Positions 139 through 63,791 of a DNA stretch of 64,000 nt are shown here, one piece after another; within the stretch, counting starts at the first letter, position 1, and every line of letters begins with the position of its first letter. Origin of the DNA: a virus. The notes under the pieces are model-generated. The model had not been told where the DNA came from. It worked only from the letters and a program-made list of their open reading frames with translations, and made no database searches. Where the stretch lies: IMG/VR virus record IMGVR_UViG_3300042315_000201; one strand, written 5' to 3'. The position numbers and the translations under genes were made by a program.

Positions 139-812
139 AAATATGGCACATCTCCGATACTCACACGTATCACGACTTATTAAAAGTACCTAAAGGCATT
201 GATATGGTAATACATTCTGGCGATTGTAGTAATCCTAGAGATCCATACAATAACGAGCCTGAGGTTAGAGAATTCATTGACTGGTATAAAGAGTTATCAC
301 CTAAGTATAAAATATATGTAGCTGGTAACCATGATTCTAGCATTGAAAAGAAACTAGTAACTAAAAAAGATTTTGAAGACAACGGTATTATATACCTAGA
401 AAATGATTATGTTACCATTGAAGGTATTAAAATATTTGGTTCGCCTTATACACCTAACTTTGGTAATTGGTCCTTTATGAGAGATCGAAATAAACTTGAT
501 CGATTCTGGTGCAGTGCTATACACAATGATACCGATATTGTTGTTACTCACGGCCCTCCTAAGGGTATTTTAGACAAGTCTGAAACCCGTGAAGGCTTAA
601 TGGAATGCTGCGGTGATAAATCTTTACTTAATAAGTTATTAGAAGTACAACCTGCATATCATTTATTTGGCCATATTCATAACTGTAGAGGTGTTGTTAA
701 TGCTGGAATGCAAAAGTTAAGTGTATGTGATACATTCTTTAGCAATGGATCGGTGGTGACTGATGGAAAATTTGGAAAATTAAGTAGTAACGGTAATACA
801 TTAGTAATATGA
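135..812 (+). CDS. calcineurin-like metallophosphoesterase
   Basis: Motifs HISDTH, IHSGD, VAGNHD, VTHGPP and HLFGHIH in the canonical order. Confidence 0.9.
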   Translation: MKIWHISDTHTYHDLLKVPKGIDMVIHSGDCSNPRDPYNNEPEVREFIDWYKELSPKYKIYVAGNHDSSIEKKLVTKKDFEDNGIIYLENDYVTIEGIKIFGSPYTPNFGNWSFMRDRNKLDRFWCSAIHNDTDIVVTHGPPKGILDKSETREGLMECCGDKSLLNKLLEVQPAYHLFGHIHNCRGVVNAGMQKLSVCDTFFSNGSVVTDGKFGKLSSNGNTLVI

Positions 813-1054
813 AAGCAATATTAGAATTTAATTTGCCCGATGACCAAATGGAGTTTAATAGAGTGAACCAGTCAATGGATATGGCTTGTGCTTTGTTCGA
901 TATATTAAACCTACGTAAACGTTTATCAGGGCATTACGACACATTCACTGACGAAAATATACCTGACGCTTATGATGCGCTATATAGAATGGCAGATGAA
1001 ATAGCAGAGATACTTAACGACCATAATATAGTCATTGATAAATTGATAGATTAA
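809..1054 (+). CDS. hypothetical phage protein
   Basis: 81-aa ORF translationally coupled to both neighbours (ATGA and TAATG overlaps). Confidence 0.7.
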   Translation: MKAILEFNLPDDQMEFNRVNQSMDMACALFDILNLRKRLSGHYDTFTDENIPDAYDALYRMADEIAEILNDHNIVIDKLID

Positions 1055-1263
1055 TGAAACCAATTCACAAGTTTAACAACGGACGTGGCGCAACATTATG
1101 TCACTGTTGCAGTAAAATTATAACCACAGGTTTTACACAAGATTTATTTTGTGATGAAATCTGTGATAAAAAGTACTATGTTAAAGCAAACTGGGATATA
1201 AAAGAATTTTATGAACAGATGGATAAAGAAGTCCATCAAAATAGAGGTAACCTAAACAAATAG
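1054..1263 (+). CDS. small Cys-containing hypothetical protein
   Basis: 69 aa with LCHCC and FCDEIC pairs; coupled to the upstream ORF. Confidence 0.6.
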   Translation: MKPIHKFNNGRGATLCHCCSKIITTGFTQDLFCDEICDKKYYVKANWDIKEFYEQMDKEVHQNRGNLNK

Positions 1264-1265
1264 TC

Positions 1266-1298
1266 TTACAAAACAAATACGAATAACAACTGATAATA
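1266..1298 (+). promoter_or_regulatory. copy of repeated early promoter-like motif (YTACA..ACGA-N8-TGATAATA)
   Basis: TTACAAAACAAATACGA at 1266 and TGATAATA exactly 25 nt downstream of its start; lies upstream of the ATG at 1329. Confidence 0.75.
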
Positions 1299-1328
1299 TT
1301 AATATAAACAAACAAACAACTAAAAACA

Positions 1329-1730
1329 ATGGAAAAAATTAATGATCTTTTTGATGTACAAATAGCGAAAACTATAGATGCTTATCCAAGTATCTTTTCT
1401 AAAGACGACGTAATAACGTTGTTATCCAGTTTAAGAACTGAATCTCTGCATGCTATACACGAAATGTTACCGCAACCAAGCGCTTATCTTATTGATGAGG
1501 AAAAGTTCCAAGAGTTCAATGCAGCTGTTAGAAGCAAGTTAGAATACTTCTTAGATCGTACTAATACAGAAGTTATTGATTATGACTCTGCTGAGTTTAA
1601 TGTTAACTATGATAATAGAATTGAGTTAGAAAACATCTGTCTTAATAACGATGCTATTACAGAAGAATTAGACGATATATTATTAACTCAGTGGCAACTT
1701 GTTTACGGTGATCTTAAAACAGATGAATAG
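1329..1730 (+). CDS. acidic hypothetical protein
   Basis: 133-aa ORF directly downstream of the promoter motif, A-rich start context. Confidence 0.75.
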   Translation: MEKINDLFDVQIAKTIDAYPSIFSKDDVITLLSSLRTESLHAIHEMLPQPSAYLIDEEKFQEFNAAVRSKLEYFLDRTNTEVIDYDSAEFNVNYDNRIELENICLNNDAITEELDDILLTQWQLVYGDLKTDE

Positions 1731-1731
1731 T

Positions 1732-1968
1732 ATGTCAGATGAAGATATTGAGAAAATTGCATCGAGCGTGTTTCAAAAACTACTGGCGAAGCAAGAAGAA
1801 TGGGACAAGCACTATCATTATTCGTCTGATCGCCAGGCACTTATAGATCAAGTTACTGCGCTGAACATAATTAAAGCGCAGTATATTGCGGATGAGAAAT
1901 ACGAACTAGTAATAGAAATAACAGGTAAAATAAAAGCTATAAGCGATGAACTTGCAAAAAATAATTAG
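1732..1968 (+). CDS. hypothetical protein with UVR-like C-terminal coiled coil
   Basis: ATG at 1732 right after the previous stop; C-terminal YIADEKYELVIEITGKIK resembles the UvrB/C UVR motif. Confidence 0.6.
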   Translation: MSDEDIEKIASSVFQKLLAKQEEWDKHYHYSSDRQALIDQVTALNIIKAQYIADEKYELVIEITGKIKAISDELAKNN

Positions 1969-1969
1969 G

Positions 1970-2083
1970 ATGAGTAAAATAAAAGAATATATAATGGATA
2001 TGAATGAAGAAAGATCCGAAGGAAAAATAATATATGAAACGTTATATGGAACTTATGAATATGAAAAGAGTGACGTAAGCTAA
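1970..2083 (+). CDS. 37-aa hypothetical protein (not in ORF track)
   Basis: MSKIKEYIMDMNEERSEGKIIYETLYGTYEYEKSDVS*; fills the gap between neighbouring ORFs. Confidence 0.4.
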   Translation: MSKIKEYIMDMNEERSEGKIIYETLYGTYEYEKSDVS

Positions 2084-2113
2084 TTAATATAATAAGTAAC
2101 AGGCTAATGTCAC
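2070..2113. repeat. 44-bp inverted-repeat element, copy 1
   Basis: GTGACGTAAGC-N22-GCTAATGTCAC; the right arm contains the ATG (2107) of the HTH gene. Confidence 0.8.
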
Positions 2114-2730
2114 AGTATCAAAGAAACTTAGAATACTTAAATAAAACAAGAGTGATATATAAACAATCTCCTATAAATGATAAACCAACTGAGAAGTTTG
2201 AATGGGGTGATTACTACGAAAATGGAACTGATGAATGTTATGATCTATTTAGAAGTAAAGCTAAGATTCCCACATATAAGTCTTTGAAATGGCATCTATA
2301 TGTTTTATGGTATCTTAATACTTCTATGGATCAAGATCAGTTTGTTAATTTAGCTAAGTTCATTGCAAATAAGAATAACGGATTTGTTACCTTTAATGTT
2401 AATGAAACTTTACTACAAAGCATGATATACGATGTATCTCTTCAGGATCTAGAAACTCCACCGTTTAATAAGACTAGAAAGATTATATTCAATGACAAAT
2501 GTAAATTGAGTTTAAGTGAAAAACTTTCTATTGTTGGACAGATGATTGGTAAAACTAAGAAAGTCTCTGAGAATGATATATATGATATGATGTTATATCT
2601 TAACGATGCTGGTGTAAAAATCACGGTTGTTAAGTTAGCTAATGAATTAGGATGTACAACTAGAACAATACATCGTAATATGAGTAATGAATTAAAAAAA
2701 GAAAAAGAACTATTAAACAAGAACCTATGA
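2107..2730 (+). CDS. DNA-binding protein with C-terminal helix-turn-helix (regulator or Rep-like)
   Basis: C-terminal TVVKLANELGCTTRTIHRNM is a typical HTH. Confidence 0.75.
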   Translation: MSQYQRNLEYLNKTRVIYKQSPINDKPTEKFEWGDYYENGTDECYDLFRSKAKIPTYKSLKWHLYVLWYLNTSMDQDQFVNLAKFIANKNNGFVTFNVNETLLQSMIYDVSLQDLETPPFNKTRKIIFNDKCKLSLSEKLSIVGQMIGKTKKVSENDIYDMMLYLNDAGVKITVVKLANELGCTTRTIHRNMSNELKKEKELLNKNL

Positions 2731-2984
2731 CACTTGAAGAACAAGTTAGACCACACGCTTTATTATGGGATTGCTATAATGATGAGCCAGAAAAATATAA
2801 CCATACTAATAAATTAATAAAAATAGCAGATGAATTTGCTATTGGGTTTGCAGAGTGGATGAACAAAACAGAAAATAGATTAGGTTATCATGAAACTAAA
2901 AATGAATGGTATCATTTTGATTCAGGAAAATGGATAACAACAAAAGAACTATTAGAAACCTATAAAAAAGAAAACAAATTATGA
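2727..2984 (+). CDS. hypothetical protein
   Basis: 85 aa with ATGA overlaps on both sides. Confidence 0.65.
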   Translation: MTLEEQVRPHALLWDCYNDEPEKYNHTNKLIKIADEFAIGFAEWMNKTENRLGYHETKNEWYHFDSGKWITTKELLETYKKENKL

Positions 2985-3391
2985 GAACAAACGTTTTAGA
3001 AACAGTAAAAGTAAATAGCACGGCTATTAATGAAGTAAAGTATGATGTTGAAAACGAAGCTTTACAAGTAGAGTTCGTTAACAAAAGTAAGTATATCTAT
3101 AAAGAAGTGCCTAAGCATGTATTCAATGGTATTGCAGATTCAGATTCAAAAGGTAAGTTTATCAATCAATACATCATTGGCAAATTCAAATACGAAGCTG
3201 TTCCAGCAGCGCCATTAATCCAACATGGGAACGGTGCTATACACGTTACTCGCCTTGAAGTTATTAATCACGCTTCAAATAGCCATGCAATTGGTAGATT
3301 ATTAACATTGTATAAATCTATGGGCGACTTTAATGAAATTGAATTGGATTACCAAGATGGTGGTAAAACTCTTAAAATATTTCTATCTTAG
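2981..3391 (+). CDS. KTSC-domain protein with extra C-terminal domain
   Basis: N-terminal VNSTAINEVKYD..LQVEF..KYIYKEVP..F..I..SDSKGKFINQYI matches the KTSC pattern. Confidence 0.8.
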   Translation: MRTNVLETVKVNSTAINEVKYDVENEALQVEFVNKSKYIYKEVPKHVFNGIADSDSKGKFINQYIIGKFKYEAVPAAPLIQHGNGAIHVTRLEVINHASNSHAIGRLLTLYKSMGDFNEIELDYQDGGKTLKIFLS

Positions 3392-4156
3392 ATGAAGAGT
3401 TATAATATACAAAACTATATCCGCTATAAGGAAGATATTAAACAAGCAATGAGTCGTATTGATGGTAAATTCTGGGACGAATATACTAGAGATGAATTGA
3501 TCATTAAGTTTCTTCCTTTAGTGGAAAATATAGCTAAAAAGTTTTCTACCACAACCCAGGCGTCTGGTGTATTAGATATTACAGATCTTATTCAAGCAGG
3601 TTCAAAAGGCTTAATAATGGCTATTGACAAAATTGAGTGGACAACAATAACTGATTCAGATGATCCAGAAAAAACTATTAAGTCATTTCTATCAAAAAGA
3701 ATTAAGGGCTCAATTAGAAGAGATATGGATATATATCGTGGCAGCATAAAACTTCCAGAACATAAGTTAATTGAAATGAGAAAAGACAATGGCCAAAATC
3801 AAGATATGGTTGCAATGTTTTTCAATTCAATATTCTTAAGTCTAGATGAGCAAATGGAAGATGATAATGACGATAATATGTTATACCAAATTCCAGACAA
3901 ATCTGAAGGCTATAATATAGATCTTATGAATATCTATTTAACTGGATTGCTTAAGAAACATTTAGACCATCGTGAGTTTGAAGTTTTAAGATTAAGTTAT
4001 GGATTAGACTGTGATAAACATTCTGCAATTACTATTGCTGAACTGTTAAATATTGAAGGTAACAGCGCTTATGTTAGAGTTTCAGAATTAAAAAAGCAAG
4101 CAATTAAGAAATTAGTTGACAACGTTGATCCCTCTCAAGTCCTTGATTACCTATAG
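3392..4156 (+). CDS. phage-encoded sigma70-family sigma factor
   Basis: Region 2 (LIIKFLPLVENIAKKF...DLIQAGSKGLIMAIDK...RIKGSIRR), SLD motif, and region 4 (LDHREFEVLRLSYGL..IAELLNI..VRVSELKKQAIKKL). Confidence 0.88.
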   Translation: MKSYNIQNYIRYKEDIKQAMSRIDGKFWDEYTRDELIIKFLPLVENIAKKFSTTTQASGVLDITDLIQAGSKGLIMAIDKIEWTTITDSDDPEKTIKSFLSKRIKGSIRRDMDIYRGSIKLPEHKLIEMRKDNGQNQDMVAMFFNSIFLSLDEQMEDDNDDNMLYQIPDKSEGYNIDLMNIYLTGLLKKHLDHREFEVLRLSYGLDCDKHSAITIAELLNIEGNSAYVRVSELKKQAIKKLVDNVDPSQVLDYL

Positions 4157-4225
4157 TTTAAATGTAAATAGATTATAGAATACGTAACTATATAAATATA
4201 AATATTAAACAATTAAATCAAATAT

Positions 4226-4777
4226 ATGGCAGAAAAAAAAATGACGCTAAATGAAAAGTTAGCAATTATTCAAACAGAATTCAAATCTAAAAAGAGTAGA
4301 TTCAATTCGTTTGGCAAGTACAATTTTAGGTCGGCAGAAGACATATTAGAAGCAACTAAACCGTTTTTATTACGTCTTGGTGTATCAGTAACCGTTACTG
4401 AAGAACTGATTGGATCAACACAGATGTTTCCTATATTGAAATCAACAGCCACAATATCTTGTGACTTAGACAGTATAAGTTCAACGGCAATTGTCGGCGT
4501 TGACTTAGATCAAAAAGGTATGCAAATGCCTCAGAAGTTTGGTTCAGCATCTAGCTATGGTAAAAAGTATGCTCTTGGTAATCTATTCTTAATTGACGAT
4601 ACACAAGATGCAGATCATGGTAAAGCAGATCCAAAACCTAAAGTTAAAATTGAATTAGGCACTGATACTTATAAGAAAGCAGAAGCTTATGTAAAAGATC
4701 AAGCTACATTAGATGTAATACTAGCTAAGTACGATGTTGATCCAAATGCTATACTCGCTCTTAAAAAACTAATATAA
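4226..4777 (+). CDS. ERF-family single-strand annealing recombinase
   Basis: N-terminal KLAIIQTE..K...NSFGKYNFRSAEDIL and GSASSYGKKYALGNLFLIDD..DAD motifs. Confidence 0.85.
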   Translation: MAEKKMTLNEKLAIIQTEFKSKKSRFNSFGKYNFRSAEDILEATKPFLLRLGVSVTVTEELIGSTQMFPILKSTATISCDLDSISSTAIVGVDLDQKGMQMPQKFGSASSYGKKYALGNLFLIDDTQDADHGKADPKPKVKIELGTDTYKKAEAYVKDQATLDVILAKYDVDPNAILALKKLI

Positions 4778-4781
4778 GTAT

Positions 4782-5513
4782 ATGACTAGAGATGAAATTT
4801 TAGAAAAATTAAAAGATGATACACATTATTACGGAGAGTTTGGTTCCCAGTTTATTAGTAATTCAAATATATCGACTCTGCTGACTAATCCTTTACTATT
4901 AAAAGTAAAGAGTGAAGCAAATGTTAACTTTGCTATTGGAGGTTACTTCCATACAATGATATTAGAACCTGATAAGTTAGACAAATACAAAGTAATAGAT
5001 GCAACAACCCGTAATACTAATAAGTATAAAGAATTATCTGGCGGTGAAATATGTTTGTTACAACACGAGGTTGACAAAATAGAATTGATGCGGGACAAGA
5101 TGATGTCCAATAAAATATGTGCTGGACTAATAAAAGGTTTTAATGTAGAGTATGAAGTTCCTGGCATTGCAGAGATTAACAATGTAATGTGGAAAGGTAA
5201 AGCGGATATATTAAACCATGATGAAGGATTGATTATAGATTTGAAAACGACCTCAGATATATCATCATTCCCATATTCAGCAAAGAAATACAACTACGAT
5301 AGCCAAGCGTATATATATAGAAAGTTATTTGGATATGACTTAATATTCATGGCTATAGACAAACAAACCAATCAGATCGGTATATTTGATTGTTCTGAAA
5401 CATTCTTAAAGAGTGGTGAAGATAAAGTTATGAGAGCAATAGACGCTTATACATTATTCTACAAAACAGAGGACTTTGATCCTCAACAACATTTATTAAC
5501 AAAAACACTTTAA
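4782..5513 (+). CDS. PD-(D/E)xK exonuclease (RecE/exonuclease VIII-like)
   Basis: ISNSNI, GGYFHTMILEP, KGKADIL...IIDLKTT and YNYDSQAYIY motifs; adjacent to the annealing protein. Confidence 0.82.
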   Translation: MTRDEILEKLKDDTHYYGEFGSQFISNSNISTLLTNPLLLKVKSEANVNFAIGGYFHTMILEPDKLDKYKVIDATTRNTNKYKELSGGEICLLQHEVDKIELMRDKMMSNKICAGLIKGFNVEYEVPGIAEINNVMWKGKADILNHDEGLIIDLKTTSDISSFPYSAKKYNYDSQAYIYRKLFGYDLIFMAIDKQTNQIGIFDCSETFLKSGEDKVMRAIDAYTLFYKTEDFDPQQHLLTKTL

Positions 5514-5523
5514 TTAAATCAAA

Positions 5524-5703
5524 ATGAAAAGAAGAACAATTGCAGCAGTAAAAACAAGAGTATGTGACGTAACAGGTTTAGAAAGACCAGAGTCTGATTT
5601 CTACAAAAATCAATCGCATTTAAAATCAGTAGACAATTTAAGAAGATCTACAGGAGCAACTAAAAACCAGATGGCTAGGTTTTATCAGCAGCTTACAGCA
5701 TAA
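5524..5703 (+). CDS. 59-aa basic hypothetical protein (not in ORF track)
   Basis: MKRRTIAAVKTRVCDVTGLERPESDFYKNQ...QQLTA*; A-rich start context. Confidence 0.55.
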   Translation: MKRRTIAAVKTRVCDVTGLERPESDFYKNQSHLKSVDNLRRSTGATKNQMARFYQQLTA

Positions 5704-5725
5704 ACACGAATGGCTATTGATAATA
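5693..5725 (+). promoter_or_regulatory. copy of early promoter-like motif upstream of ssb
   Basis: TTACAGCATAAACACGA followed by TGATAATA at the same 25-nt offset as the other copies. Confidence 0.65.
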
Positions 5726-5767
5726 ATAGTATAACAAATAACCTTATAAACAAATAAAACGAGAATT

Positions 5768-6088
5768 ATGGCATCAATTATTAAATGTTCAATCAATTTA
5801 AACGAAATCCCTAAGCACAAAATTATTGACGGTAAGAAAGGAAAGTATTTACCAATCACAATTACAATCAACGATGAGGTTGATCAGTTTGGTAATCAAG
5901 GACCAGTAATGGTTGAACAATCAAAAGAAGAACGTGAAGCGAAAGCCGCTAAAGTTTATCTTGGAAATGTTAAAGTAGTATGGACTAATGGAACTAACGT
6001 TCCTGCGGCGCCAAGACAAGATGGTAGTGGACAACAACCACAACAAGTTAAACAACCAGCAATGGTTGAGGACGATTTACCGTTCTAG
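5768..6088 (+). CDS. ssb: single-stranded DNA-binding protein (phage type)
   Basis: Predicted beta-rich core (GKKGKYLPITI..DQFGN..YLGNVKV), Gln/Gly-rich linker and acidic tail EDDLPF. Confidence 0.75.
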   Translation: MASIIKCSINLNEIPKHKIIDGKKGKYLPITITINDEVDQFGNQGPVMVEQSKEEREAKAAKVYLGNVKVVWTNGTNVPAAPRQDGSGQQPQQVKQPAMVEDDLPF

Positions 6089-6090
6089 AA

Positions 6091-6612
6091 TATACCAATG
6101 CTAACTGTTAGGCTCGACATCTTAGAAAAAAGGTTCACAGTAAGGTCGGCAAACCAGGAACCTTGATCTTATTAATGAAAAGCAATGCAGATTTAAAACT
6201 CTAATGAGCCTTACAATCTAATTAATAAGAAAGACACAGGTTGGTATAATGTACCTATAGCGCTTCCCGTAAGATCAGCCTTTAGGTCTTTTTTAGGTAT
6301 AGGCGCACTAACTTCCTTTTTCAATAGAACGCAATCATTATCTTGTACAAGCTCCGTAACTGATAACTCGGTAAGCTACAGGATATACAAGTGGCGTTAG
6401 GCGGGACCAACTCCGGAGAGGTTAAGTAACATCGCCTTTTATATGGTGTAGCGGTTTTTGAACCATTACCTCATAACACACTTAACAAAGGTTATTTGTA
6501 TTGACACGCACGGCAGCCGAAATTATACTAGTCCTAACTAGGCAATGCGAATAATGAAGACCAGATACCTCACGGTGCGTAGGTAAATTTCAAAGCTGGT
6601 TAATAACCTTTT
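6091..6612 (+). ncRNA. large structured non-coding RNA candidate, family unassigned
   Basis: No ORF of 60 aa or more; perfect helices 6091-6098/6241-6248, 6130-6136/6158-6164, 6167-6176/6221-6230, 6342-6347/6386-6391 and 6487-6496/6602-6611, plus possible pseudoknot 6110-6115/6206-6211; followed by a terminator. Confidence 0.7.
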
Positions 6613-6622
6613 TTAGTTAGTT

Positions 6623-6645
6623 AAACCCCATTTATTGGGGTTTTT
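6623..6645 (+). terminator. rho-independent terminator
   Basis: AAACCCCA-tttat-TGGGGTTT followed by a T run. Confidence 0.75.
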
Positions 6646-6680
6646 CTATCTATAATTAGTAACAACAAATAAAACAATAA

Positions 6681-8390
6681 ATGCAAACAATAGAGATAAA
6701 TGGTTTCTTGATTGACCAATTCAATCAATACAAACTTGAAGAGGGTAAGAGTCAAGGAACATGCCCTCTATGTTCTACCGATAGAAAAGCCAAGAATGAA
6801 AAAGCCAAATGCGCTATGTATGATTGGGATAGAGGTATTGGAACTTGTATGAATTGTAGTAAGACTTTTCAATTGCACACCTACAAACGTAAAGGTGCGT
6901 CTGAAAAAGTTTATGTTAGACCTGCAGAACAAGTTAATGTAACTCCTCCAAGTACTAAGATTGTAGAATGGTTTAAAGACAGAGCAATATCAGAACAAAC
7001 ATTAAACGATTTAGGCGTTACTGAAGGTCTTGAGTTTATGCCTCAAACTGGTAAAAGCGAAAATGCTATACACTTTAATTATTTCATCGGCGATCAACTT
7101 ATAAATATAAAATACAGAGATGGTAGAAAGAACTTTAAGTTGTATAAAGGCGCTGAGAAAGTTTTTTACAATATTAATAGCATTGTGGGTTTTGAGTATT
7201 GTATCATCGTGGAGGGCGAAATGGATGTCCTTGCCTTGCATGAGTCCGGGATCACTAATGCAATATCTGTACCAAATGGGGCAACGCTTAATACAAACAA
7301 TTTAGAATACCTGGATAATTGCATCGACTATTTTGAAGACAAACAAAAAATAATAATAGCAGTTGATTCAGATGCTGCCGGGCAAGCCCTGCAGTCTGAG
7401 TTAGTTAGGAGATTAGGATCAGAAACTTGTTATATTGCAACTTTCGATGATTGTAAGGATGCAAATGAATATTTAATTAAATACGGTAAGGAAGCTTTAT
7501 CTAATAGAATTAGCAGAGCTAAACCTGTGCCATTAGAAAATGTAACAACCTTTAGAGACATAGAAGATGAAGTCACGGATTTTGTACGCAATGGGTTTAA
7601 ACCTGGATTCCAGGTTGGCCTTGAGAATTTCGATAGTATTTTCTCTACTTATACGGGTCAGTTCATCACTGTTACTGGTATACCTAGTTCTGGAAAGTCT
7701 GACTTTGTTGACCAAATGGTTATAGGTTACAATGCTAACTATGGTTGGAAAACTGCTTATGCTTCTCCTGAGAATCACCCTACTTATTTGCATGCTCATA
7801 AGTTAATGAGAAAAACTTGGCAAGGTATGCCCGGCGTTGAAGATATTAAATCAGAGAAGTGGAATCAAGTAGCGGACCATGTTAATGATAATTATTTCTT
7901 TATTGACATGGAACGTTATACTTTAGAATCGGTACTGCGTAAAGGTGCTGAGCTAGTTAAACGTAAAGGAATTAAATGCTTAGTTATTGATCCATTCAAT
8001 AAGGTAAGATCCGCGGATGCTTCTGGCGATGTAAATGTATACACGTTAGAATACTTAAGTCAGATTGAAATCTTTGCTAAAAAGTATGATGTATTAGTTA
8101 TGGTTGTAGCGCATCCAACTAAAATGTATAAAGACAGTAGTGGCAAGATTGAAGAGCCTACTATGTACAACATTAAAGGTGGTGGTGAATGGTACGATGC
8201 ATCATATCATGGATTATTAGTTCATAGAAACTACGAAGACAAAACTGTTAAAGTAAAAGTTCTTAAATGTAAATTTCAAAACCTAGGTGAGAATGGTGCT
8301 GAATGTCATTTCAAGTGGGAACCAGCTTCAGGTTGTTTCTTACCACACGTTCCAGCAGTAAGTTCAGACGATAAGATGCCTTGGGACTAA
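6681..8390 (+). CDS. T7 gp4/Twinkle-like primase-helicase
   Basis: Zinc-binding CPLC...CMNC, TOPRIM IIVEGEMD and AVDSDAAG, Walker A GIPSSGKS, Walker B VIDPFN. Confidence 0.93.
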   Translation: MQTIEINGFLIDQFNQYKLEEGKSQGTCPLCSTDRKAKNEKAKCAMYDWDRGIGTCMNCSKTFQLHTYKRKGASEKVYVRPAEQVNVTPPSTKIVEWFKDRAISEQTLNDLGVTEGLEFMPQTGKSENAIHFNYFIGDQLINIKYRDGRKNFKLYKGAEKVFYNINSIVGFEYCIIVEGEMDVLALHESGITNAISVPNGATLNTNNLEYLDNCIDYFEDKQKIIIAVDSDAAGQALQSELVRRLGSETCYIATFDDCKDANEYLIKYGKEALSNRISRAKPVPLENVTTFRDIEDEVTDFVRNGFKPGFQVGLENFDSIFSTYTGQFITVTGIPSSGKSDFVDQMVIGYNANYGWKTAYASPENHPTYLHAHKLMRKTWQGMPGVEDIKSEKWNQVADHVNDNYFFIDMERYTLESVLRKGAELVKRKGIKCLVIDPFNKVRSADASGDVNVYTLEYLSQIEIFAKKYDVLVMVVAHPTKMYKDSSGKIEEPTMYNIKGGGEWYDASYHGLLVHRNYEDKTVKVKVLKCKFQNLGENGAECHFKWEPASGCFLPHVPAVSSDDKMPWD

Positions 8391-8729
8391 ATGGGTAGTG
8401 GAACTAAAAAGAAAGGGGCCATAGACATGGGCAGTTATTCTTGCAAACTTAGTGAATGCGATGCTAGAGATTGGGGTATAAGAAATGGCATATACATTGC
8501 ACCATTTGCTAAAAGCCCTACTGAATGGTATATAACTATAAATGTTAATGGTAAGATAAGCACAAGTCCTGAAACTTATGGTAAAGTAGAGATATGGAAA
8601 CAAATATATAAATACTATCTTTATTATTATAGTAAGTATACTAAGCAAGAAATAAAAGAAGAGCCTAAAGCAGTAGAAAAACAAATTAAAAAAGAAAAAG
8701 TAATTAACGATAACTTAAAACTATTCTAG
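8391..8729 (+). CDS. hypothetical protein
   Basis: 112-aa ORF packed between primase-helicase and thyA. Confidence 0.65.
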   Translation: MGSGTKKKGAIDMGSYSCKLSECDARDWGIRNGIYIAPFAKSPTEWYITINVNGKISTSPETYGKVEIWKQIYKYYLYYYSKYTKQEIKEEPKAVEKQIKKEKVINDNLKLF

Positions 8730-8730
8730 T

Positions 8731-9498: not shown

Positions 9499-9507
9499 GT
9501 AAACAAA

Positions 9508-11462: not shown

Positions 11463-11467
11463 AATAT

Positions 11468-58543: not shown

Positions 58544-59092
58544 CTATTTTTTATTTGATTTATTATACTCATTAGTTGCGGCAATACCTGCGGTTGGCGC
58601 GGCATGAGCTACTAGGTTTTTTGTCAATTTTGACACAAGTGGTTTAGAAATACTTTTTGCAAGTTTTAAACCTTGACTAGCCGCCTTTGCTTTGCCTACT
58701 AAGGGTATTGCCCCCGCTATATCAAAAGCGTCTCCTATTGCTCTACTTGTGTTCCATTCATATCCTTTTTGGGATTTAACACCAATAGCAGAACCTGTCA
58801 TTTTAGCTAAGTCTACAAAGCCTCTTTTAGCTTCCTTCCATTGACTAATGCCTGTTGGATCCAACAAAGATTGCACCCCAGCGTTAGGTTGATTTCTTTC
58901 GTAGTCCTGCCTCTTCTGTGTAGCCTTTTGAGAATCTTTGTTTTTAAGTATATTAGTTTCATCAGGTGACACTTCAGTATTGCCCCTGTAATAATGTGTT
59001 TCAGATTTACCTTCTTTGTTAAGGCTTTGCTTTGAAGTTACTTTTTTTGTAATATCTTGCTGAGGTGATTGACTCCTTAATTGAAAACCCAT
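58544..59092 (-). CDS. hypothetical virion protein
   Basis: 182 aa; LDPTG...DIAGAIPLVGKAK segment. Confidence 0.6.
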   Translation of the reverse strand: MGFQLRSQSPQQDITKKVTSKQSLNKEGKSETHYYRGNTEVSPDETNILKNKDSQKATQKRQDYERNQPNAGVQSLLDPTGISQWKEAKRGFVDLAKMTGSAIGVKSQKGYEWNTSRAIGDAFDIAGAIPLVGKAKAASQGLKLAKSISKPLVSKLTKNLVAHAAPTAGIAATNEYNKSNKK

Positions 59093-59093
59093 C

Positions 59094-59345
59094 TTATTTC
59101 TTCTTATCTATTTTATACTTCTTACCACTTTCCTTCTTAGTGCCTTCACCGTCATTCCCTCTATTCTGTTTTACAGATTCAAACCTACCATCCTTATGGT
59201 CATAGTCTTTCCCTTTATTCCCAGGACTCGCTCGATGCATTCTTTGAGAGTGCGCTTTCTTATTTTTTCTATCCTCAGTTTTAGCATAAGCCAAATCCCG
59301 CACAGCTTTTGCTTTAGCCGCAGCAGGCGATAATTTCTGTGCCAT
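59094..59345 (-). CDS. small basic protein, degenerate HNH-like
   Basis: GKDYDHKDG..ES..QNRG; first gene of the late operon. Confidence 0.55.
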   Translation of the reverse strand: MAQKLSPAAAKAKAVRDLAYAKTEDRKNKKAHSQRMHRASPGNKGKDYDHKDGRFESVKQNRGNDGEGTKKESGKKYKIDKKK

Positions 59346-59409
59346 ATCTTAATTTTAGTATAGTTATATACTCACGCAACAAACCTAAATCTTACGCATC
59401 GTAAAAACA

Positions 59410-59453
59410 GGGACGTTAGCCTACTACTATATAATATAACTAGCTAATGTCGC
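59410..59453. repeat. 44-bp inverted-repeat element, copy 2
   Basis: GGGACGTTAGC-N22-GCTAATGTCGC, 65 nt upstream of the first late gene. Confidence 0.8.
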
Positions 59454-59619
59454 TATTCTACTTAAAGTAAAATATAATTTACAAAAGGACAGGTATTCGT
59501 AAACTGTATCTTACCTTGTAAAAAAAAATATAATAAAAAATTTTTTAGTAGCGCCGGCGTAGTCAGTGGTGGTGTTGAATGTGTATTGTCAGATATATAT
59601 AATTAAGGGGCTACACGCG

Positions 59620-60275
59620 TATTTCATTTCCCGAATTCGTAAACGGAATTGAATCGGTTTCCGTGGGGGTGCCTTCCTTTTTTCGGGTTTCCCAAAACGG
59701 TTTGGGTTTTCCCTGGGAATCCTGGAAACGGTCTGGCTTTCCTGGCTGGTGTCGGCTGGTGCTGGTGTGGCATGCTGGTGCTTGGCGCCGTGTCGGTGTG
59801 TGTGCTGGTGTGTGTGTGTGTCGCTGCCGTACGTGTATGTGTGTGTGTCATGTGTATGTATGTGTACGTATGCCGTGTGATTGTTATGATCTGCTGCCGT
59901 GCGTATGTTATGATCTCGTGCGTATGTACGTTATTATGTACGATATGACACGATATGTACGTAATACGATACGTTTCCGTGTGGTGTGGTTATGTGCGTT
60001 ATGTGGCACTATTACGTACGAATATGTGTACGATATGGCATTAACTCGTACGAATATGCGTTATGTGGCATTATGTTGTACGTATACGTCCAGGATCTGG
60101 CGTAATGCGTGTTAGTGCGCGTTATATGGCATCATGTTCCGTGTATGATTCCTGCATGATTCCGTTCCCGTGGGCAGGACTCCTGTGTGTGTGTTCCCGT
60201 TCCCGATTCGTACGATACGTAATACGATTACGTGCGGAGCACGCGCGAAGCGTGTATAGCAACGCGTATAGCATT
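59620..60275. repeat. non-coding GT-rich, purine-pyrimidine-alternating repeat region (candidate terminus/origin)
   Basis: A-poor (GT)n tracts, GCTGGTG five times, duplicated TGCGTTATGTGGCA, CGTACGAATATG and TACGTAATACGAT; lies at the divergence point. Confidence 0.7.
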
Positions 60276-60277
60276 TC

Positions 60278-60310
60278 CTACAGTACGAATACGAAGTGTA
60301 TTTGATAATA
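60278..60310 (+). promoter_or_regulatory. early promoter-like motif
   Basis: CTACAGTACGAATACGA-N8-TGATAATA. Confidence 0.75.
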
Positions 60311-60345
60311 TATATGAATCTAAATAACAACTTAAATTAAATAAA

Positions 60346-60453
60346 ATGACAAATCTACAAAAATTACAAGAAATCAAAAAACTTACAAATGATCAAGTAT
60401 TGTTAGAATATATCAATGTTCTAATATCTATCGAATTAGAATATGAAAGTTAA
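60346..60453 (+). CDS. 35-aa early protein (not in ORF track)
   Basis: MTNLQKLQEIKKLTNDQVLLEYINVLISIELEYES*; follows a promoter motif. Confidence 0.5.
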   Translation: MTNLQKLQEIKKLTNDQVLLEYINVLISIELEYES

Positions 60454-60454
60454 T

Positions 60455-60487
60455 CTACAATAAGAATACGAAGTACAATCGATAATA
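60455..60487 (+). promoter_or_regulatory. early promoter-like motif
   Basis: CTACAATAAGAATACGA-N8-CGATAATA. Confidence 0.7.
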
Positions 60488-60511
60488 TATATGAATATAA
60501 AAACAAACAAA

Positions 60512-60625
60512 ATGTCAGATCAAGAATTAGAATTACTATGTCAAGAAGAAGAGATCTACGTACAAGCGTGGAGATCAAGCCTAACTCAAGAACAATTAAA
60601 CCAACTAAACGAATACATCGCATGA
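60512..60625 (+). CDS. 37-aa early protein (not in ORF track)
   Basis: MSDQELELLCQEEEIYVQAWRSSLTQEQLNQLNEYIA*; ATGA overlap with the next ORF. Confidence 0.5.
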   Translation: MSDQELELLCQEEEIYVQAWRSSLTQEQLNQLNEYIA

Positions 60626-60825
60626 AAAGATTAAATGATTTACATCCACAAACGAGACTCGACATGATCGAGGAAACAAGATGGCAATTCGGCCAAGAGC
60701 ACGTGCAACATTGCATAGACACTAATGCTGAGATCAACGGCATGTGTGCATGGTCCAGGACTCGGCAAGGAGCTTCATACTGGGCATGGGTTGACTCCGA
60801 GGAGTTCGATCCAGCACTGAACTAA
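60622..60825 (+). CDS. early protein, paralog of 62645-62860
   Basis: Start refined to 60622; INGMCAWSRTRQGASYW motif. Confidence 0.6.
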   Translation: MKRLNDLHPQTRLDMIEETRWQFGQEHVQHCIDTNAEINGMCAWSRTRQGASYWAWVDSEEFDPALN

Positions 60826-60927
60826 CATAACGGAATTCGGTCCTTTAATCGGGATCTTTTTACTCCACTCGATGGAATTGGCAGCCGGGACCGTGCGAGC
60901 TTGCGAGCTACGCAACGCGTATAGCAT

Positions 60928-60960
60928 TTACAGTCTAAACACGAGGTCAATTTGATAATA
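60928..60960 (+). promoter_or_regulatory. early promoter-like motif
   Basis: TTACAGTCTAAACACGA-N8-TGATAATA. Confidence 0.7.
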
Positions 60961-61010
60961 TATATGTAAGTAACAAAGTAACAAACTAATTTAAATAAAA
61001 ATAAAGTAAC

Positions 61011-61043
61011 TTACAAAACCAATACGAATTGAATTTGATAATA
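61011..61043 (+). promoter_or_regulatory. early promoter-like motif
   Basis: TTACAAAACCAATACGA-N8-TGATAATA. Confidence 0.75.
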
Positions 61044-61079
61044 ATAATGTAAATAAATAACAACTTAAATTAAATAACT

Positions 61080-61397
61080 ATGAACAATCAAGAATTATTA
61101 CAACAAGCGATCGCTAAATTATCAACTGAAGAATTGGCTTTGATCTATCCACCGATCGAACGAGCTAACTTTGTAGTCAGAAAGAATTGGTTAGGCCGAA
61201 ATCAAGTTATAACTTTCATCAACAATAAAAATCAGAAAGTAACTTACAATCACGATGAAGTTCTGAATGTTATGCTTCCAAAGCTATCAATAATGCCATG
61301 TTGGATTAAAAGACAATACTGGTCACAATCTACTGATATGCCAAGTAATGTCAGACATCTAGCTAAAATTGAAGTCTTAGAGTCTACTGAAAAGTAG
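61080..61397 (+). CDS. early hypothetical protein
   Basis: 105 aa downstream of tandem promoter motifs. Confidence 0.75.
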   Translation: MNNQELLQQAIAKLSTEELALIYPPIERANFVVRKNWLGRNQVITFINNKNQKVTYNHDEVLNVMLPKLSIMPCWIKRQYWSQSTDMPSNVRHLAKIEVLESTEK

Positions 61398-61427
61398 GCT
61401 TTAAGCTCAAACAAAAATGCTATACAT

Positions 61428-61460
61428 TTACAGAACGAATACGAAGTACAATTGATAATA
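61428..61460 (+). promoter_or_regulatory. early promoter-like motif
   Basis: TTACAGAACGAATACGA-N8-TGATAATA. Confidence 0.78.
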
Positions 61461-61484
61461 ATAATGAATCTAAAATAAACAACT

Positions 61485-61628
61485 ATGCAATTAACAAATC
61501 TAGCTTACAAATTAGCCACTAAGCACGGCTACAAGTACACACGTACAACTGAATTCATGATCCTGAGCTATTCAGATCAAATCAAACTAAGTAACTTAAT
61601 CAGATTTATACTAGAACAAGAAAGATAA
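61485..61628 (+). CDS. 47-aa early protein (not in ORF track)
   Basis: MQLTNLAYKLATKHGYKYTRTTEFMILSYSDQIKLSNLIRFILEQER*. Confidence 0.55.
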   Translation: MQLTNLAYKLATKHGYKYTRTTEFMILSYSDQIKLSNLIRFILEQER

Positions 61629-61631
61629 GAT

Positions 61632-61844
61632 ATGATAACAAAAATAATCTTTGTATGGTACCTGATGACAGGTGCTATACACTCGGAAGGGTTCAACTCG
61701 GATCTAAGTCGTGAGCAATACACAATACACAAACAAGATAGGGAGTATCCTGATGTAACAATGCATGTCGAAAACGCATACAAAGAAGAAATTCTACACT
61801 GGATCGAAACTGGTAAGTTTGTATATGATGAAGATATGAAATAA
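61632..61844 (+). CDS. early hypothetical protein
   Basis: 70 aa with a hydrophobic N-terminus. Confidence 0.6.
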   Translation: MITKIIFVWYLMTGAIHSEGFNSDLSREQYTIHKQDREYPDVTMHVENAYKEEILHWIETGKFVYDEDMK

Positions 61845-61857
61845 TATGTAGAAAAGT

Positions 61858-61901
61858 GCGACGTTAGCCTGCTATTAGTAGTTATAAGCAGCTAATGTCA
61901 C
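61858..61901. repeat. 44-bp inverted-repeat element, copy 3
   Basis: GCGACGTTAGC-N22-GCTAATGTCAC. Confidence 0.85.
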
Positions 61902-61992
61902 TCTTTTTGCTATACACTATATTAGCCTGGCTTTGAGATAGCGCCGGAAGAGTAGACTCCGTCCTACAACACAGTTAAATTCAACTAAAATA

Positions 61993-62036
61993 GCGACGTT
62001 AGCCTACTATTATCTAGTATAACACCCTAATGTCAC
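61993..62036. repeat. 44-bp inverted-repeat element, copy 4
   Basis: GCGACGTTAGC-N22-CCTAATGTCAC. Confidence 0.8.
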
Positions 62037-62077
62037 CTTTTTCAACGATCTTACACGGTAAACGTGTATAGCACCGC

Positions 62078-62110
62078 TTACAAAACGAACACGAGACCAA
62101 TTTGATAATA
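62078..62110 (+). promoter_or_regulatory. early promoter-like motif
   Basis: TTACAAAACGAACACGA-N8-TGATAATA. Confidence 0.78.
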
Positions 62111-62134
62111 ATGATGTAACTAAAAACAACTACT

Positions 62135-62404
62135 ATGAGCGAATATGAATTAATTGAGAGTAAAACGATCGTGTGGTGCAACCAAGATGACCGCTATGTC
62201 TACATCGAAAAAGTAGGAGACGATATTGTCGGACTAAATTTCATGCAAGGCGAAGAACTCGACGAGTTTAAAAGGTTCTTTTGCAAGAATTGCGTCGAAC
62301 TAACTAAGTTCTACAATGCTATACACCGCTACCTCGGAGGCAAATGCGAGCTCGACCGTATCAACCAAGCTATATGGGCTTACCATTCATACCGAAATGA
62401 CTAA
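62135..62404 (+). CDS. early hypothetical protein
   Basis: 89 aa downstream of a promoter motif. Confidence 0.7.
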   Translation: MSEYELIESKTIVWCNQDDRYVYIEKVGDDIVGLNFMQGEELDEFKRFFCKNCVELTKFYNAIHRYLGGKCELDRINQAIWAYHSYRND

Positions 62405-62467
62405 GGCTTAGTGAAGTCAGGGATTATAACATTATCTCTTTAAAATCGATTAAACATCTATCCACCT

Positions 62468-62500
62468 TTACAAAACGAATACGAGAGTGATTTGATAATA
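62468..62500 (+). promoter_or_regulatory. early promoter-like motif
   Basis: TTACAAAACGAATACGA-N8-TGATAATA. Confidence 0.78.
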
Positions 62501-62528
62501 TAAATGTAACTAACAAAAACTAATTACT

Positions 62529-62642
62529 ATGCAAGATTACTATGGCATTACGGAAGATGAGTATATATTTTACACCCAAGAAATGCAGTCTATGAATACT
62601 GCAATTACAGTGACAAATAAATTAACCTATAAAAACAAGTAA
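62529..62642 (+). CDS. 37-aa early protein (not in ORF track)
   Basis: MQDYYGITEDEYIFYTQEMQSMNTAITVTNKLTYKNK*. Confidence 0.45.
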   Translation: MQDYYGITEDEYIFYTQEMQSMNTAITVTNKLTYKNK

Positions 62643-62644
62643 AT

Positions 62645-62860
62645 ATGACTAGAATAGAATGGATGCGCGGTCTAGATGAGGCGCTTAGACGAAAGATTAT
62701 CGCTAGAATAGTCGATGGTAACGCCAATGTCGATTTTATCGATCAATGGCTGCAAAGTGATGTAGATATTAAAGAAGATGGTATTACTGGTGCATTTACA
62801 TTTTCTACTACAAGAGAGGGTTTAACCTATTGGGAAAGAATTAACGCTAATATTAAATAA
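62645..62860 (+). CDS. early protein, paralog of 60622-60825
   Basis: ITGAFTFSTTREGLTYW motif. Confidence 0.65.
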   Translation: MTRIEWMRGLDEALRRKIIARIVDGNANVDFIDQWLQSDVDIKEDGITGAFTFSTTREGLTYWERINANIK

Positions 62861-62868
62861 AGAAAACT

Positions 62869-62973
62869 ATGGAAAGTGATTGTTGTGGGTCTTACGAATG
62901 GATGGAAGATACAGGTATCTGCGCTGAGTGTGGCGAGCACGCTGATTGGAATAACTATGAAGATGAAGAATAG
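62869..62973 (+). CDS. 34-aa Cys-rich putative zinc-binding peptide (not in ORF track)
   Basis: MESDCCGSYEWMEDTGICAECGEHADWNNYEDEE*. Confidence 0.6.
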   Translation: MESDCCGSYEWMEDTGICAECGEHADWNNYEDEE

Positions 62974-62974
62974 T

Positions 62975-63199
62975 ATGGAAGATATAATTGAATATACAAG
63001 AACATTACGTGACGGTACTACACAAGCTATGTACCGATCAAAGTGGATGAATCAAGAATATCACTCTGATAGCAGAGCAAATATTGAAGAATGGTTAAAC
63101 GAGAAAGTAACTAATGTCGAGAAATACAAGGCTATTAGAGAAGCAGAAGATAAAGCAATCCACTCATTTTTTGAGGGTACATTAACAAGTAAAGATTAA
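62975..63199 (+). CDS. early hypothetical protein
   Basis: Start refined to ATG 62975 after the Cys-rich ORF. Confidence 0.6.
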   Translation: MEDIIEYTRTLRDGTTQAMYRSKWMNQEYHSDSRANIEEWLNEKVTNVEKYKAIREAEDKAIHSFFEGTLTSKD

Positions 63200-63202
63200 G
63201 TT

Positions 63203-63376
63203 ATGAAAGAAGGATATATAGTTAACAAAACTATCGGTACAGGGTTATATATTGAAGTGTACAACTACAAAGCACTCAATGAAATCAGTCATTATAGATA
63301 TTTAACTAACCCGAATATCGACGTAGTAAACAATAGAGTAGGCGTGTGGAAAGCGAAATTAATTAAACAACAATAA
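63203..63376 (+). CDS. 57-aa early protein (not in ORF track)
   Basis: MKEGYIVNKTIGTGLYIEVYNYK...LIKQQ*. Confidence 0.5.
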   Translation: MKEGYIVNKTIGTGLYIEVYNYKALNEISHYRYLTNPNIDVVNNRVGVWKAKLIKQQ

Positions 63377-63377
63377 T

Positions 63378-63539
63378 ATGGAATATAGAATTAGGATTAC
63401 AGAGACAGCGTCTAGAGTGCTATACATCGATGCGATCGACGAACAATCAGCGGTTGATATTGTTAGCGAACAATACGGCAAAGGAGAAATTATATTAGAC
63501 TATGATGACTACGACTGCACCGACATTGAAGCCTTATAA
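63378..63539 (+). CDS. DpnD/PcfM-like small protein (not in ORF track)
   Basis: MEYRIRITETASRVLYIDAIDEQSAVDIVSEQYGKGEIILDYDDY matches the Y.V.I.ET..R.V.V.A..E..A..V..Y..EI.LD pattern. Confidence 0.65.
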   Translation: MEYRIRITETASRVLYIDAIDEQSAVDIVSEQYGKGEIILDYDDYDCTDIEAL

Positions 63540-63544
63540 TACTC

Positions 63545-63577
63545 TTACAGAACGAATACGAATTAAGTTTGATAATA
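63545..63577 (+). promoter_or_regulatory. early promoter-like motif
   Basis: TTACAGAACGAATACGA-N8-TGATAATA. Confidence 0.78.
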
Positions 63578-63602
63578 ATAATGTAACCAATACTAAACAA
63601 CT

Positions 63603-63791
63603 ATGAACAAAGAAAAAAAATCAATCAAGTTTTTAAAGAACAATTTTATTAAACTAAACGGTGTGCTATACACGCCATATCTTGTCGGTGATCTACCGTC
63701 AAAGTTCGGATTTATAACTAATGACGACGATCAAGACGGATATTCTGAGTGGTTCAATTTAAACGGTTTAACCTATATAATCAAAGACTAA
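63603..63791 (+). CDS. early hypothetical protein
   Basis: 62 aa downstream of a promoter motif. Confidence 0.65.
   Translation: MNKEKKSIKFLKNNFIKLNGVLYTPYLVGDLPSKFGFITNDDDQDGYSEWFNLNGLTYIIKD

Follow-up and report, generated by a model that had tools for sequence, protein, structure and literature searches.

Introduction

The closest described counterparts of a short word recurring along one half of a phage genome are the nick-associated motifs of LUZ24-like phages. In phage tf the motif is a strict 9-mer on the sense strand of the early genes, TACT/RTGMC (PMC3517423), and in Rembedalsseter it is WACTRTGAC (PMC11780129). Such motifs occur in 9-14 copies, 11 of 14 in the early half and densest near the left end, lie within and outside coding sequences (CDS) without positional preference, persist across relatives with little nucleotide similarity, and are conserved in 61 phages, their function being unknown (PMC3517423; PMC11780129). 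Here we describe a word of comparable form, TGCTATACA(C/T), in a 64-kb window (IMG/VR record IMGVR_UViG_3300042315_000201, 64,000 nucleotides, the whole stretch analysed; hereafter W) that represents essentially the whole genome of an uncultured lake-water podophage. Like the LUZ24-like motifs (and, at a greater distance, those of phiKMV-like and T5-like phages), it is a strict 9-10-mer with hardly any degenerate copies, present in some 10-25 copies on the early-sense strand, concentrated in the early half of the genome and densest towards one end, found both in and outside CDS, and retained by relatives that have little DNA similarity. It differs from them in that its orientation in the W clade follows transcription, reversed tandem copies touch promoters and other copies follow terminators; moreover, sequence and host phylum are unrelated.

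Promoters of phage T4 offer a second comparison. The late promoter TATAAATA, read with gp55, and extended -10 promoters are likewise short, near-invariant words without a -35 element, co-oriented with their genes and often lying within upstream coding sequence; as in the gp55 case the phage has its own sigma factor, and TG-n-TATA is the extended -10 pattern. T4 late promoters stand before late genes, whereas the word occupies the early/middle arm, lacks clear positioning at gene starts and forms reversed tandems, and the sigma factor is found also in word-less relatives. With T4 middle promoters it shares the character of a second class of sites over the early region, co-oriented, often within early genes and beginning TGCT. 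The MotA box of those promoters, (a/t)(a/t)TGCTT(t/c)A at -30, acts with MotA and AsiA, is degenerate and needs a -10 at 11-13 bp downstream; unlike it, the W-clade word has no conserved -10 downstream. The RfaH ops, lambda nut and HK022 put sites are similarly strict, restricted to the sense strand and near divergent promoters, but number one or two per operon downstream of promoters, against 12-24 copies of the word, some of them after terminators or upstream of promoters. Chi, KOPS, Tus-Ter and the DnaA-dnaA box complex are also based on short asymmetric words whose direction correlates with a DNA-tracking machine. Unlike Chi and KOPS, the word is not enriched in host-order genomes and is confined to one phage arm, and we know of no Tus-like reader for it. 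A literature search for the string itself returned only primers and unrelated matches.

Enrichment of the word in the short arm

The exact 10-mer, TGCTATACAC, occurs 11 times in W against 0.13 copies expected, a number reached in none of 100 shuffles. These are the copies, at the same coordinates and on the same strands, that a first-pass annotation made from the letters alone had listed, and its five one-mismatch variants were likewise recovered; a sixth, TGCTATACTC at 4747 (+), had escaped it. The heptamer GCTATAC is present 17 times, in each case preceded by T (giving the 8-base core, TGCTATAC) and in 14 of 17 cases followed by A (giving TGCTATACA). Twelve of these 17 copies are on the + strand and five on the - strand, so that they are not confined to one strand of the molecule. 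The near-confinement to the early arm that had been claimed was borne out, 16 of the 17 lying in the + (early/middle) arm and the other, in sense orientation, in the gene for a 2992-aa virion protein. The arm in question runs rightward from about 60.25 to 64 kb and continues at 1-14.4 kb; its two parts are contiguous, since the end and the start of the window adjoin in the closest complete relative. Its products include a metallophosphoesterase, a helix-turn-helix (HTH) protein, a KTSC protein, a sigma-70-family factor, Erf, an exonuclease, a primase-helicase, ThyA, MazG and ribonucleotide reductase. The leftward structural arm (about 14.5-59.9 kb), encoding the portal, a 739-aa large terminase, tail proteins and the 2992-aa virion protein, comprises 70% of the genome and is without the word apart from the copy at 17352. 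The sites in W, with the open reading frames (ORFs) in which they fall, are as follows.

515-524, + strand: TGCTATACAC, sense in the metallophosphoesterase ORF 135-812, encoding AIH
1451-1460, + strand: TGCTATACAC, sense in ORF 1329-1730, AIH
3235-3244, + strand: TGCTATACAC, sense in the KTSC-domain ORF 2981-3391, AIH; 157 nt upstream of the sigma gene
4747-4756, + strand: variant TGCTATACTC, sense in the Erf ORF 4226-4777, at its 3' end
7064-7073, + strand: TGCTATACAC, sense in the primase-helicase ORF 6681-8390, AIH
10516-10525, + strand: variant TGCTATACAT, sense in ORF 10347-10640, VLYI
17352-17361, - strand: TGCTATACAC, sense in the 2992-aa virion gene, VLYT; sole late-arm copy in W
60252-60273, - strand: two reversed copies, TGCTATACAC and TGCTATACGC, 12 nt apart, with GC-rich mini-hairpins preceding them and a gap of 5 nt to the first early-type promoter
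60917-60926, - strand: reversed variant TGCTATACGC, separated by 1 nt from the downstream TTTACAG of the 60927 promoter
61418-61427, + strand: forward variant TGCTATACAT, adjoining TTTACAG of the promoter at 61427; same layout in the relatives G001 and G006
61673-61682, + strand: TGCTATACAC, sense in early ORF 61632-61844, AIH
61908-61917, + strand: TGCTATACAC, overlapping the T-run of the inverted-repeat terminator 61858-61903; a conserved small element follows 6 nt downstream
62064-62073, - strand: reversed TGCTATACAC, 24 nt past the terminator 61993-62038, with 4 nt between it and CTTACAA of the 62077 promoter; the hairpin ACACG-GTAAA-CGTGT has its 3' arm in the last bases of this copy
62317-62326, + strand: TGCTATACAC, sense in early ORF 62135-62404, AIH
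63418-63427, + strand: variant TGCTATACAT, sense in ORF 63378-63539
63664-63673, + strand: TGCTATACAC, sense in ORF 63603-63791, VLYT

Inside genes the word imposes the same short peptides on unrelated proteins, as had been noticed beforehand: AIH in six ORFs (515, 1451, 3235, 7064, 61673 and 62317) and VLYT at 63664 and 17352. The genes of the + arm hold ten sense copies and no antisense copy. A codon-preserving shuffle, a control called for in the first-pass annotation, which keeps every protein and the codon usage of each gene, gave a mean of 0.62 and a maximum of three sense 10-mers in the + arm genes over 1000 shuffles, where seven are found. The intergenic copies at 60252, 60264, 60917, 61418 and 62064 adjoin conserved early-type promoters, again as first annotated.

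Conservation of the word among relatives

Relatives were gathered through their terminase and sigma-factor loci, the complete or near-complete ones being used in full. Nine genomes carry the word (W, G001, G006, G008, G009, G011, G012, G013 and G015), with sigma proteins down to 52% identical to that of W, while G010, G002 and the more distant MW202828 are without it. Word-bearing genomes hold up to 24 copies each, compared with 0-3 for the reversed word used as a control, and in most of them the word is the top or a near-top over-represented 8-10-mer of the short arm. Pooled over the nine short arms there are 88 exact sense copies of TGCTATACA, and no one-mismatch variant exceeds three; the intragenic strand bias is about 88 to about 5. 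Position 10 is C (73%) or T, and positions -1 and -2 avoid C. Where the late arm has copies, in W, G001 and G008, these run in the sense direction of the late genes.

The pattern of turnover shows on what level the word is maintained. Although W and G001 are collinear, with nucleotide identity of about 73%, their intragenic copies lie mostly at different positions, and the copy at 63664 is the only intragenic site kept in place in G006, G001 and G008. Comparison of homologous codons, which the first-pass annotation had proposed as a check, showed that the AIH and VLYT peptides are kept with other synonymous codons and then without the word. In the primase, AIH is written GCT ATA CAC in W and GCA ATA CAT in G001, where the word is missing; VLYT of the giant protein is GTG CTA TAC ACA in W and GTA TTA TAT ACA in G001; and VLY at 10516 is GTG CTA TAC in W and G006 but GTG TTA TAT in G007. 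The same peptide thus occurs with and without the word at homologous positions, so that synonymous changes account for gains and losses of the word, while its number and orientation in the arm are maintained. The earlier proposal of a selected DNA-level signal accordingly stands: the word is a selected DNA-level or sense-strand signal and not a by-product of protein sequence, kept across diverged relatives while its positions turn over. It is a strict 9-10-mer, enriched, conserved in relatives and concentrated in one half of the genome, and is strongly selected, clade-wide and orientation-dependent. Its letter-for-letter constancy where proteins are only about 50% identical points to the existence of a conserved reader.

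The nearest isolates have only the structural module in common with the W clade. Isolate relatives of the terminase (Flavobacterium 'elemo', Cellulophaga, Tenacibaculum and Maribacter phages) reach at most 43% identity, the sigma protein had no match among 50,697 isolate phage records, and no near-identical DNA was found in isolate phages.

Forward and reversed copies

The two orientations of the word are distributed differently, and their placement is best followed with the neighbouring elements of the early region in view.

60278-63585, + strand: eight copies of an early-type promoter of about 42 nt, tripartite, TTACA(A/G)-N-A(T/C)ACGA-N-TTGATAATA(T/A)AAT
61858-61903, both strands: 44-bp inverted repeat GCGACGTTAGCC-N22-GCTAATGTCAC, with T-runs on both strands, resembling a bidirectional terminator
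61921-61972, + strand: conserved small element GCCTGGC...GGAAGAGTAGACTCCGTCCTAC, between two terminators, the 10-mer being its sole conserved upstream element

The early-type promoters start near 60278, 60455, 60927, 61010, 61427, 62077, 62466 and 63544, with a ninth near 5690-5730; a scan for sigma-70-type promoters performed at chance level.

Forward copies, about 90 in the nine genomes, run with transcription and lie mostly within ORFs. Among the early genes they are a few hundred bases apart, whereas 2-3 kb separate them by the end of the arm, and spacing increases with distance from the arm start when the genomes are pooled (Spearman 0.73, p = 9e-15). The 29 reversed copies are almost all found in the first 1-3 kb of the arm, where 23 of them lie at most 40 nt, and mostly 1-7 nt, upstream of a -35-like TTACAG box, a position taken by only about 9 of the 90 forward copies. 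They are often double or triple, at a spacing of 9-14 nt, and are preceded by GC-rich mini-hairpins whose 3' arm takes in the last 2-3 bases of the word; because of this overlap the TGCTATACG variant is confined to reversed copies. At some promoters a forward copy stands in place of the reversed one (W 61418, G001 29652, G006 10913 and most of those in G012), and other copies directly follow terminator hairpins (W 61908, G006 10276, and G012 43212 and 58173). The 10-mer lies directly 5' of the small element, 52 nt in length, in W, G006, G008 and G012, whereas in G001 a complete early-type promoter is found there.

A proposed promoter-type signal

Genome entry, the protection or organization of incoming DNA, Chi-like recombination and transcription control had all been suggested as functions of the word. 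Transcription control of the early/middle arm fits best and is the best-supported role; a part in organizing incoming DNA, or in nicking, is possible; a host Chi-like signal was rejected, because the word is at chance level in 61 Flavobacteriales genomes. More specifically, we favour, at a probability of roughly 0.4, the view that the word is a stand-alone, extended -10-like 'middle' promoter of this arm. Its TG-C-TATACA agrees with the extended -10 sequence TGnTATAAT at six of eight specified positions and with canonical spacing, and the ordinary promoters of the clade carry TGATAATAA at the equivalent position. It is co-oriented with the genes that it would serve, as judged from the 88 sense 9-mers of the nine genomes, and is sense-only within genes of both arms, a polarity that fits a promoter, since harm would come from antisense ones. 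Copies placed after terminators are sensible for a signal that restarts transcription and not for one that itself needs to be transcribed. The early-type promoter that precedes the 52-nt element in G001, where other genomes have the 10-mer, amounts to a functional substitution. A precedent in phages of Flavobacteriia is provided by the middle promoters of Cellulophaga phage phi14:2, which are sigma-70-like and read by the host polymerase (bioRxiv 10.1101/2020.03.07.982082).

If the word is a promoter of this type, it could be read by RNA polymerase carrying a phage specificity factor, either the sigma factor encoded at 3392-4156 or some other early product, and would give the early/middle arm a second, 'middle' mode of transcription. 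Forward copies, placed wherever coding allows, would restart or reinforce rightward transcription, and would do so densely among the short, terminator-separated early genes and more sparsely onward. Reversed copies and early promoters have the back-to-back layout typical of regulatory switches. Reversed copies abutting a -35-like box would, if they bind polymerase, fire leftward, with antisense consequences, and occlude the adjacent early promoter, an occlusion that could help early shut-off and direct transcription to the late arm, while forward copies at a promoter box would replace early by later initiation. A bolder formulation, which we hold to be doubtful, is that one reader serves two uses, forward copies driving or licensing rightward traffic and reversed tandems shutting early promoters by occlusion or convergent firing; or else that phages of Bacteroidota here provide their first nick-type motif, one whose orientation is tied to transcription.

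Several observations weigh against a promoter. No -35 element is conserved at the word although the phage sigma factor has a region 4.2, and within 80 nt on either side we found no other conserved flank, whether -35, start site or anything else. Forward copies are only weakly enriched in intergenic sequence (22% of copies, against about 15% of the sequence) and have no clear preference for the vicinity of gene starts, 56% lying less than 200 nt from the next one compared with 47% at random. Tandem -10 elements 11-13 nt apart, as the reversed copies often are, would be unusual for promoters, and the overlap of those copies with hairpins finds no account under a simple -10 reading. The sigma factor, while present in all word-bearing genomes, is found also in the word-less G010 and G002, and its DNA-reading regions in these two show no diagnostic residue change. 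The RNA runs yield small shares, solely as contigs of diverged relatives, and are without transcript starts or ends. Finally, nick motifs too are characterized by a one-sided density gradient, a near-total lack of degenerate copies and no regard for gene boundaries (PMC3517423; PMC11780129).

Freshwater metatranscriptome contigs (run X23) of diverged relatives show high depth over W 61104-61351, within the conserved early gene 61080-61397; relatives of that gene are thus present in RNA libraries.

Candidate readers

Two products of the short arm invite consideration as readers of the word.

2107-2730, + strand: HTH protein of 207 aa, the C-terminal part a three-helix HTH, the N-terminal domain without known fold; candidate DNA-binding regulator
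3392-4156, + strand: phage sigma-70-family factor with FliA-like region 2 and region 4.2; candidate, unproven reader

Across the ORFs of both arms and the segments of the giant protein, none was present in all word-bearing genomes and yet missing from both G010 and G002. G010 and G002 are sisters in the sigma tree (support 0.88) but not in those of primase, terminase or portal, which hints, if weakly, that the module containing sigma may track the word.

The HTH protein, which had been put forward for binding tests, has a mixed record. It is conserved in all word-bearing genomes and missing from the word-less G002, but it is present in the word-less G010 with its recognition helix unchanged. 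Its AlphaFold2 model (mean confidence, pLDDT, 89) was recognized as a generic C-terminal three-helix HTH; the N-terminal domain had no match to its predicted structure, and its atlas clusters consist of unnamed viral proteins. The 44-bp inverted repeat appears a likelier operator for it than the 10-mer, because one copy of the repeat always overlaps the start of the HTH gene. In W the start codon falls within the 3' arm of the copy at 2070-2113, and the overlap (ATG TCA) is retained even in G010, where the repeat is degenerate. Further copies in W lie at 59410-59455 and 61993-62038, and the form across relatives is GTGACrnTAGCC-N22-GGCTAATGTCAC. Save for the degenerate G010 copy at the HTH start, the repeat, like the 10-mer, is without copies in G010, G002 and MW202828.

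Two further candidates were set aside. The 52-nt element as reader of the word was ruled out by its presence in only six of the nine word-bearing genomes, and pairing between the two was dropped, the complementarity seen by eye being only 5 nt. The giant 2992-aa protein (14504-23482, - strand) as a virion RNA polymerase found no support in Pfam, PHROG, PDB or atlas searches, which gave no Pfam, PHROG or PDB sequence matches. This protein is a mosaic in which only residues from about 2160 to 2880 are conserved in all relatives. A segment at about 1321-1440, resembling sigma region 2, is common to G006, G007, G001, G008, G012 and G010 only, and residues 1-1200 and 1681-1920 are essentially unique to the W phage.

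Alternative explanations

By analogy with the systems described at the outset, the word could mark the site of a phage-encoded, site-specific nickase, so that packaged DNA would have one strand interrupted at defined places, as it has in T5, phiKMV-like phages, tf and Rembedalsseter; we think this unlikely. Its genomic signature comes very close to that of the tf/LUZ24-like motifs, being strict, without flanks and without a clear relation to gene starts, and joining a density gradient (the Spearman coefficient of 0.73) to conservation with positional turnover. Known nick motifs, however, lie on one strand, whereas here orientation follows transcription on both, the late-arm copy at 17352 being sense, and the arm start has 29 reversed copies. 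Nor are nick motifs known to stand in tandem 1-7 nt from -35 boxes, to follow terminators or to take the place of a promoter, as the exchange of promoter for word before the 52-nt element of G001 would require. No nickase candidate co-occurs with the word, and the PD-(D/E)xK segment that an earlier note had pointed out in the giant protein is without homologue in relatives.

Binding by a phage protein such as the HTH protein (2107-2730), which would repress early promoters and, as an asymmetric monomer, form a polar roadblock or insulator, is in our judgement likewise improbable. In such an arrangement the permissive orientation would be tolerated within transcription units and the blocking orientation would stand just upstream of promoters. 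Orientation-dependent blocks to transcription are established for asymmetric protein-DNA complexes, namely DnaA at the dnaA box and Tus-Ter. Reversed copies, single or in arrays of two or three, do adjoin the -35-like box in all relatives, a strict asymmetric site of 9-10 bp suggests a monomeric reader, and the HTH protein occurs in all word-bearing genomes and is missing from G002. A plain operator, on the other hand, predicts no intragenic strand bias where about 88 to about 5 is seen, and its extension to a polar roadblock is ad hoc and leaves some 90 dispersed forward sites without a clear job. Tandem copies spaced 9-14 nt apart have no helical phasing, and the candidate itself is compromised by the identical recognition helix in word-less G010 and by the 44-bp repeat as its likelier operator.

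Still less probable is an elongation signal like ops, nut or put, acting in the non-template strand or in RNA to load an antitermination or processivity factor, repeated for reloading and placed also in the leftward late leader. A sense-only, strict word without flanks, densest near promoters and divergent around a control region, recalls nutL/nutR, and 59620-60250, if read leftward, would be a C/A-rich, G-poor leader prone to Rho termination. Several copies, however, follow terminators and precede any promoter, and would thus be untranscribed; where reversed copies touch a promoter they are on its upstream and not its downstream side, with no evident leftward promoter to their right; family scans found no NusG-like or N-like gene; and known ops and nut sites number one or two per operon and do not recur every kilobase.

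A MotA-like middle promoter was rejected, there being no -10 downstream (TAnnnT occurs downstream of 33% of copies and upstream of 44%); no MotA or AsiA was named in family scans of part of the + arm, although no search aimed at homologues of either was made. A polar signal read by the host (Chi-like, rrn boxA-like, or an uptake or KOPS word) for protecting or processing incoming DNA can be dismissed as highly improbable: polarity and over-representation do recall Chi and KOPS, and the phage has Erf and an exonuclease, but the 61 Flavobacteriales genomes, which cover the host order only, have 0-12 copies each, similar to the reversed-word control, the 1-4 times control seen in five Flavobacteriales/Bacteroidia metagenome-assembled genomes occurs where mis-binned phage contigs are also held, the contig-end matches checked there are coding repeats or tRNA neighbourhoods and not rRNA leaders, and the late arm, 70% of the genome, is without the word.

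Neighbouring elements and genome organization

The 52-nt element is a candidate phage small RNA. Six genomes carry it (cmsearch E 2e-16 to 3e-20), with the conserved consensus GGCCTGrC...GGAAGAGTAkACTCCGyCCTAC, two small helices and a few compensatory changes, and it is flanked by terminators in W and G008; it had no Rfam match. Outside W it is found at L084:10486-10537, L107:12549-12600, L103:10166-10217(-), L111:236-288(-) and 1081-1133(-), and L130:6366-6417(-).

Between the late and early arms of W lies a non-coding region of 650 nt (59620-60250), G/T-rich on the + strand, with (GT)n runs and direct repeats of about 30 nt and of 62 nt. A similar region occurs in G006. Leftward transcription of the W region would give a leader rich in C and A, and its role may be that of an origin, of a boundary of a terminal repeat or of a leader on which Rho loads. 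In the late arm, upstream of the gene at 36153-36920 (W 36921-37007), a conserved AATTATAT(T/C)ATAT(C/T) follows a terminator hairpin and adjoins the ATG. This sequence is present at the late gene in every genome, word-less ones included; it may be a late promoter or the start of a leaderless transcript, and the phage sigma factor possibly acts there.

Exchange of modules is evident in G006 (L103-L106, IMGVR_UViG_3300042938_000809), whose early/middle-arm proteins are 80-99% identical to those of W (HTH protein 99.5%, primase 96%) and whose structural arm is at 26-72%. ARAGORN predicts in its early arm a tmRNA-like gene (L103:5031-5345, - strand), followed directly by the 10-mer, and an odd tRNA-like gene (6091-6163, - strand); Rfam and tRNA/tmRNA scans of W returned nothing. 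In G012 (L111-L114, IMGVR_UViG_3300025832_000008) positions 1 to about 4890 repeat those from about 58676 to 63566, so that the early region, some 4.9 kb, is found at both contig ends. The duplicates differ slightly, by one indel and by TGATATAC in place of TGCTATAC, which suggests either a long direct terminal repeat with early genes, as in T5 and SPO1, or an assembly of two strains.

MW202828.1 (L002), which is without TGCTATAC, has 14 copies of a perfect 16-bp palindrome, GTGTCGTTAACGACAC, in its early arm (750-12160; for example at 1546, 1813, 2146, 2598 and 2878). The majority precede the start codon of an early gene by 20-28 nt, and one is within an ORF; this is a different, hairpin-capable early signal.

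Significance for the clade

The W clade comprises abundant uncultured podophages of the Flavobacteria type from lake and marine waters. The word is a variant of known phage signals, a minimal phage promoter or a nick-type motif, set in an unusual architecture, and provides a simple handle both for finding its reader and for recognizing the early/middle arm of the clade in metagenomes. If it is a nick site, it would extend localized nicking to a new phage and host lineage, with a polarity tied to transcription, and would bear on the unexplained function of phage DNA nicks, a 50-year-old puzzle, by linking it to gene expression. If instead it is a promoter, it would represent a new minimal promoter class for phages of Bacteroidota, together with a switch formed by reversed tandems set against early promoters; such a switch, if true, would be a compact early-to-middle control written into coding sequence by means of synonymous codons.

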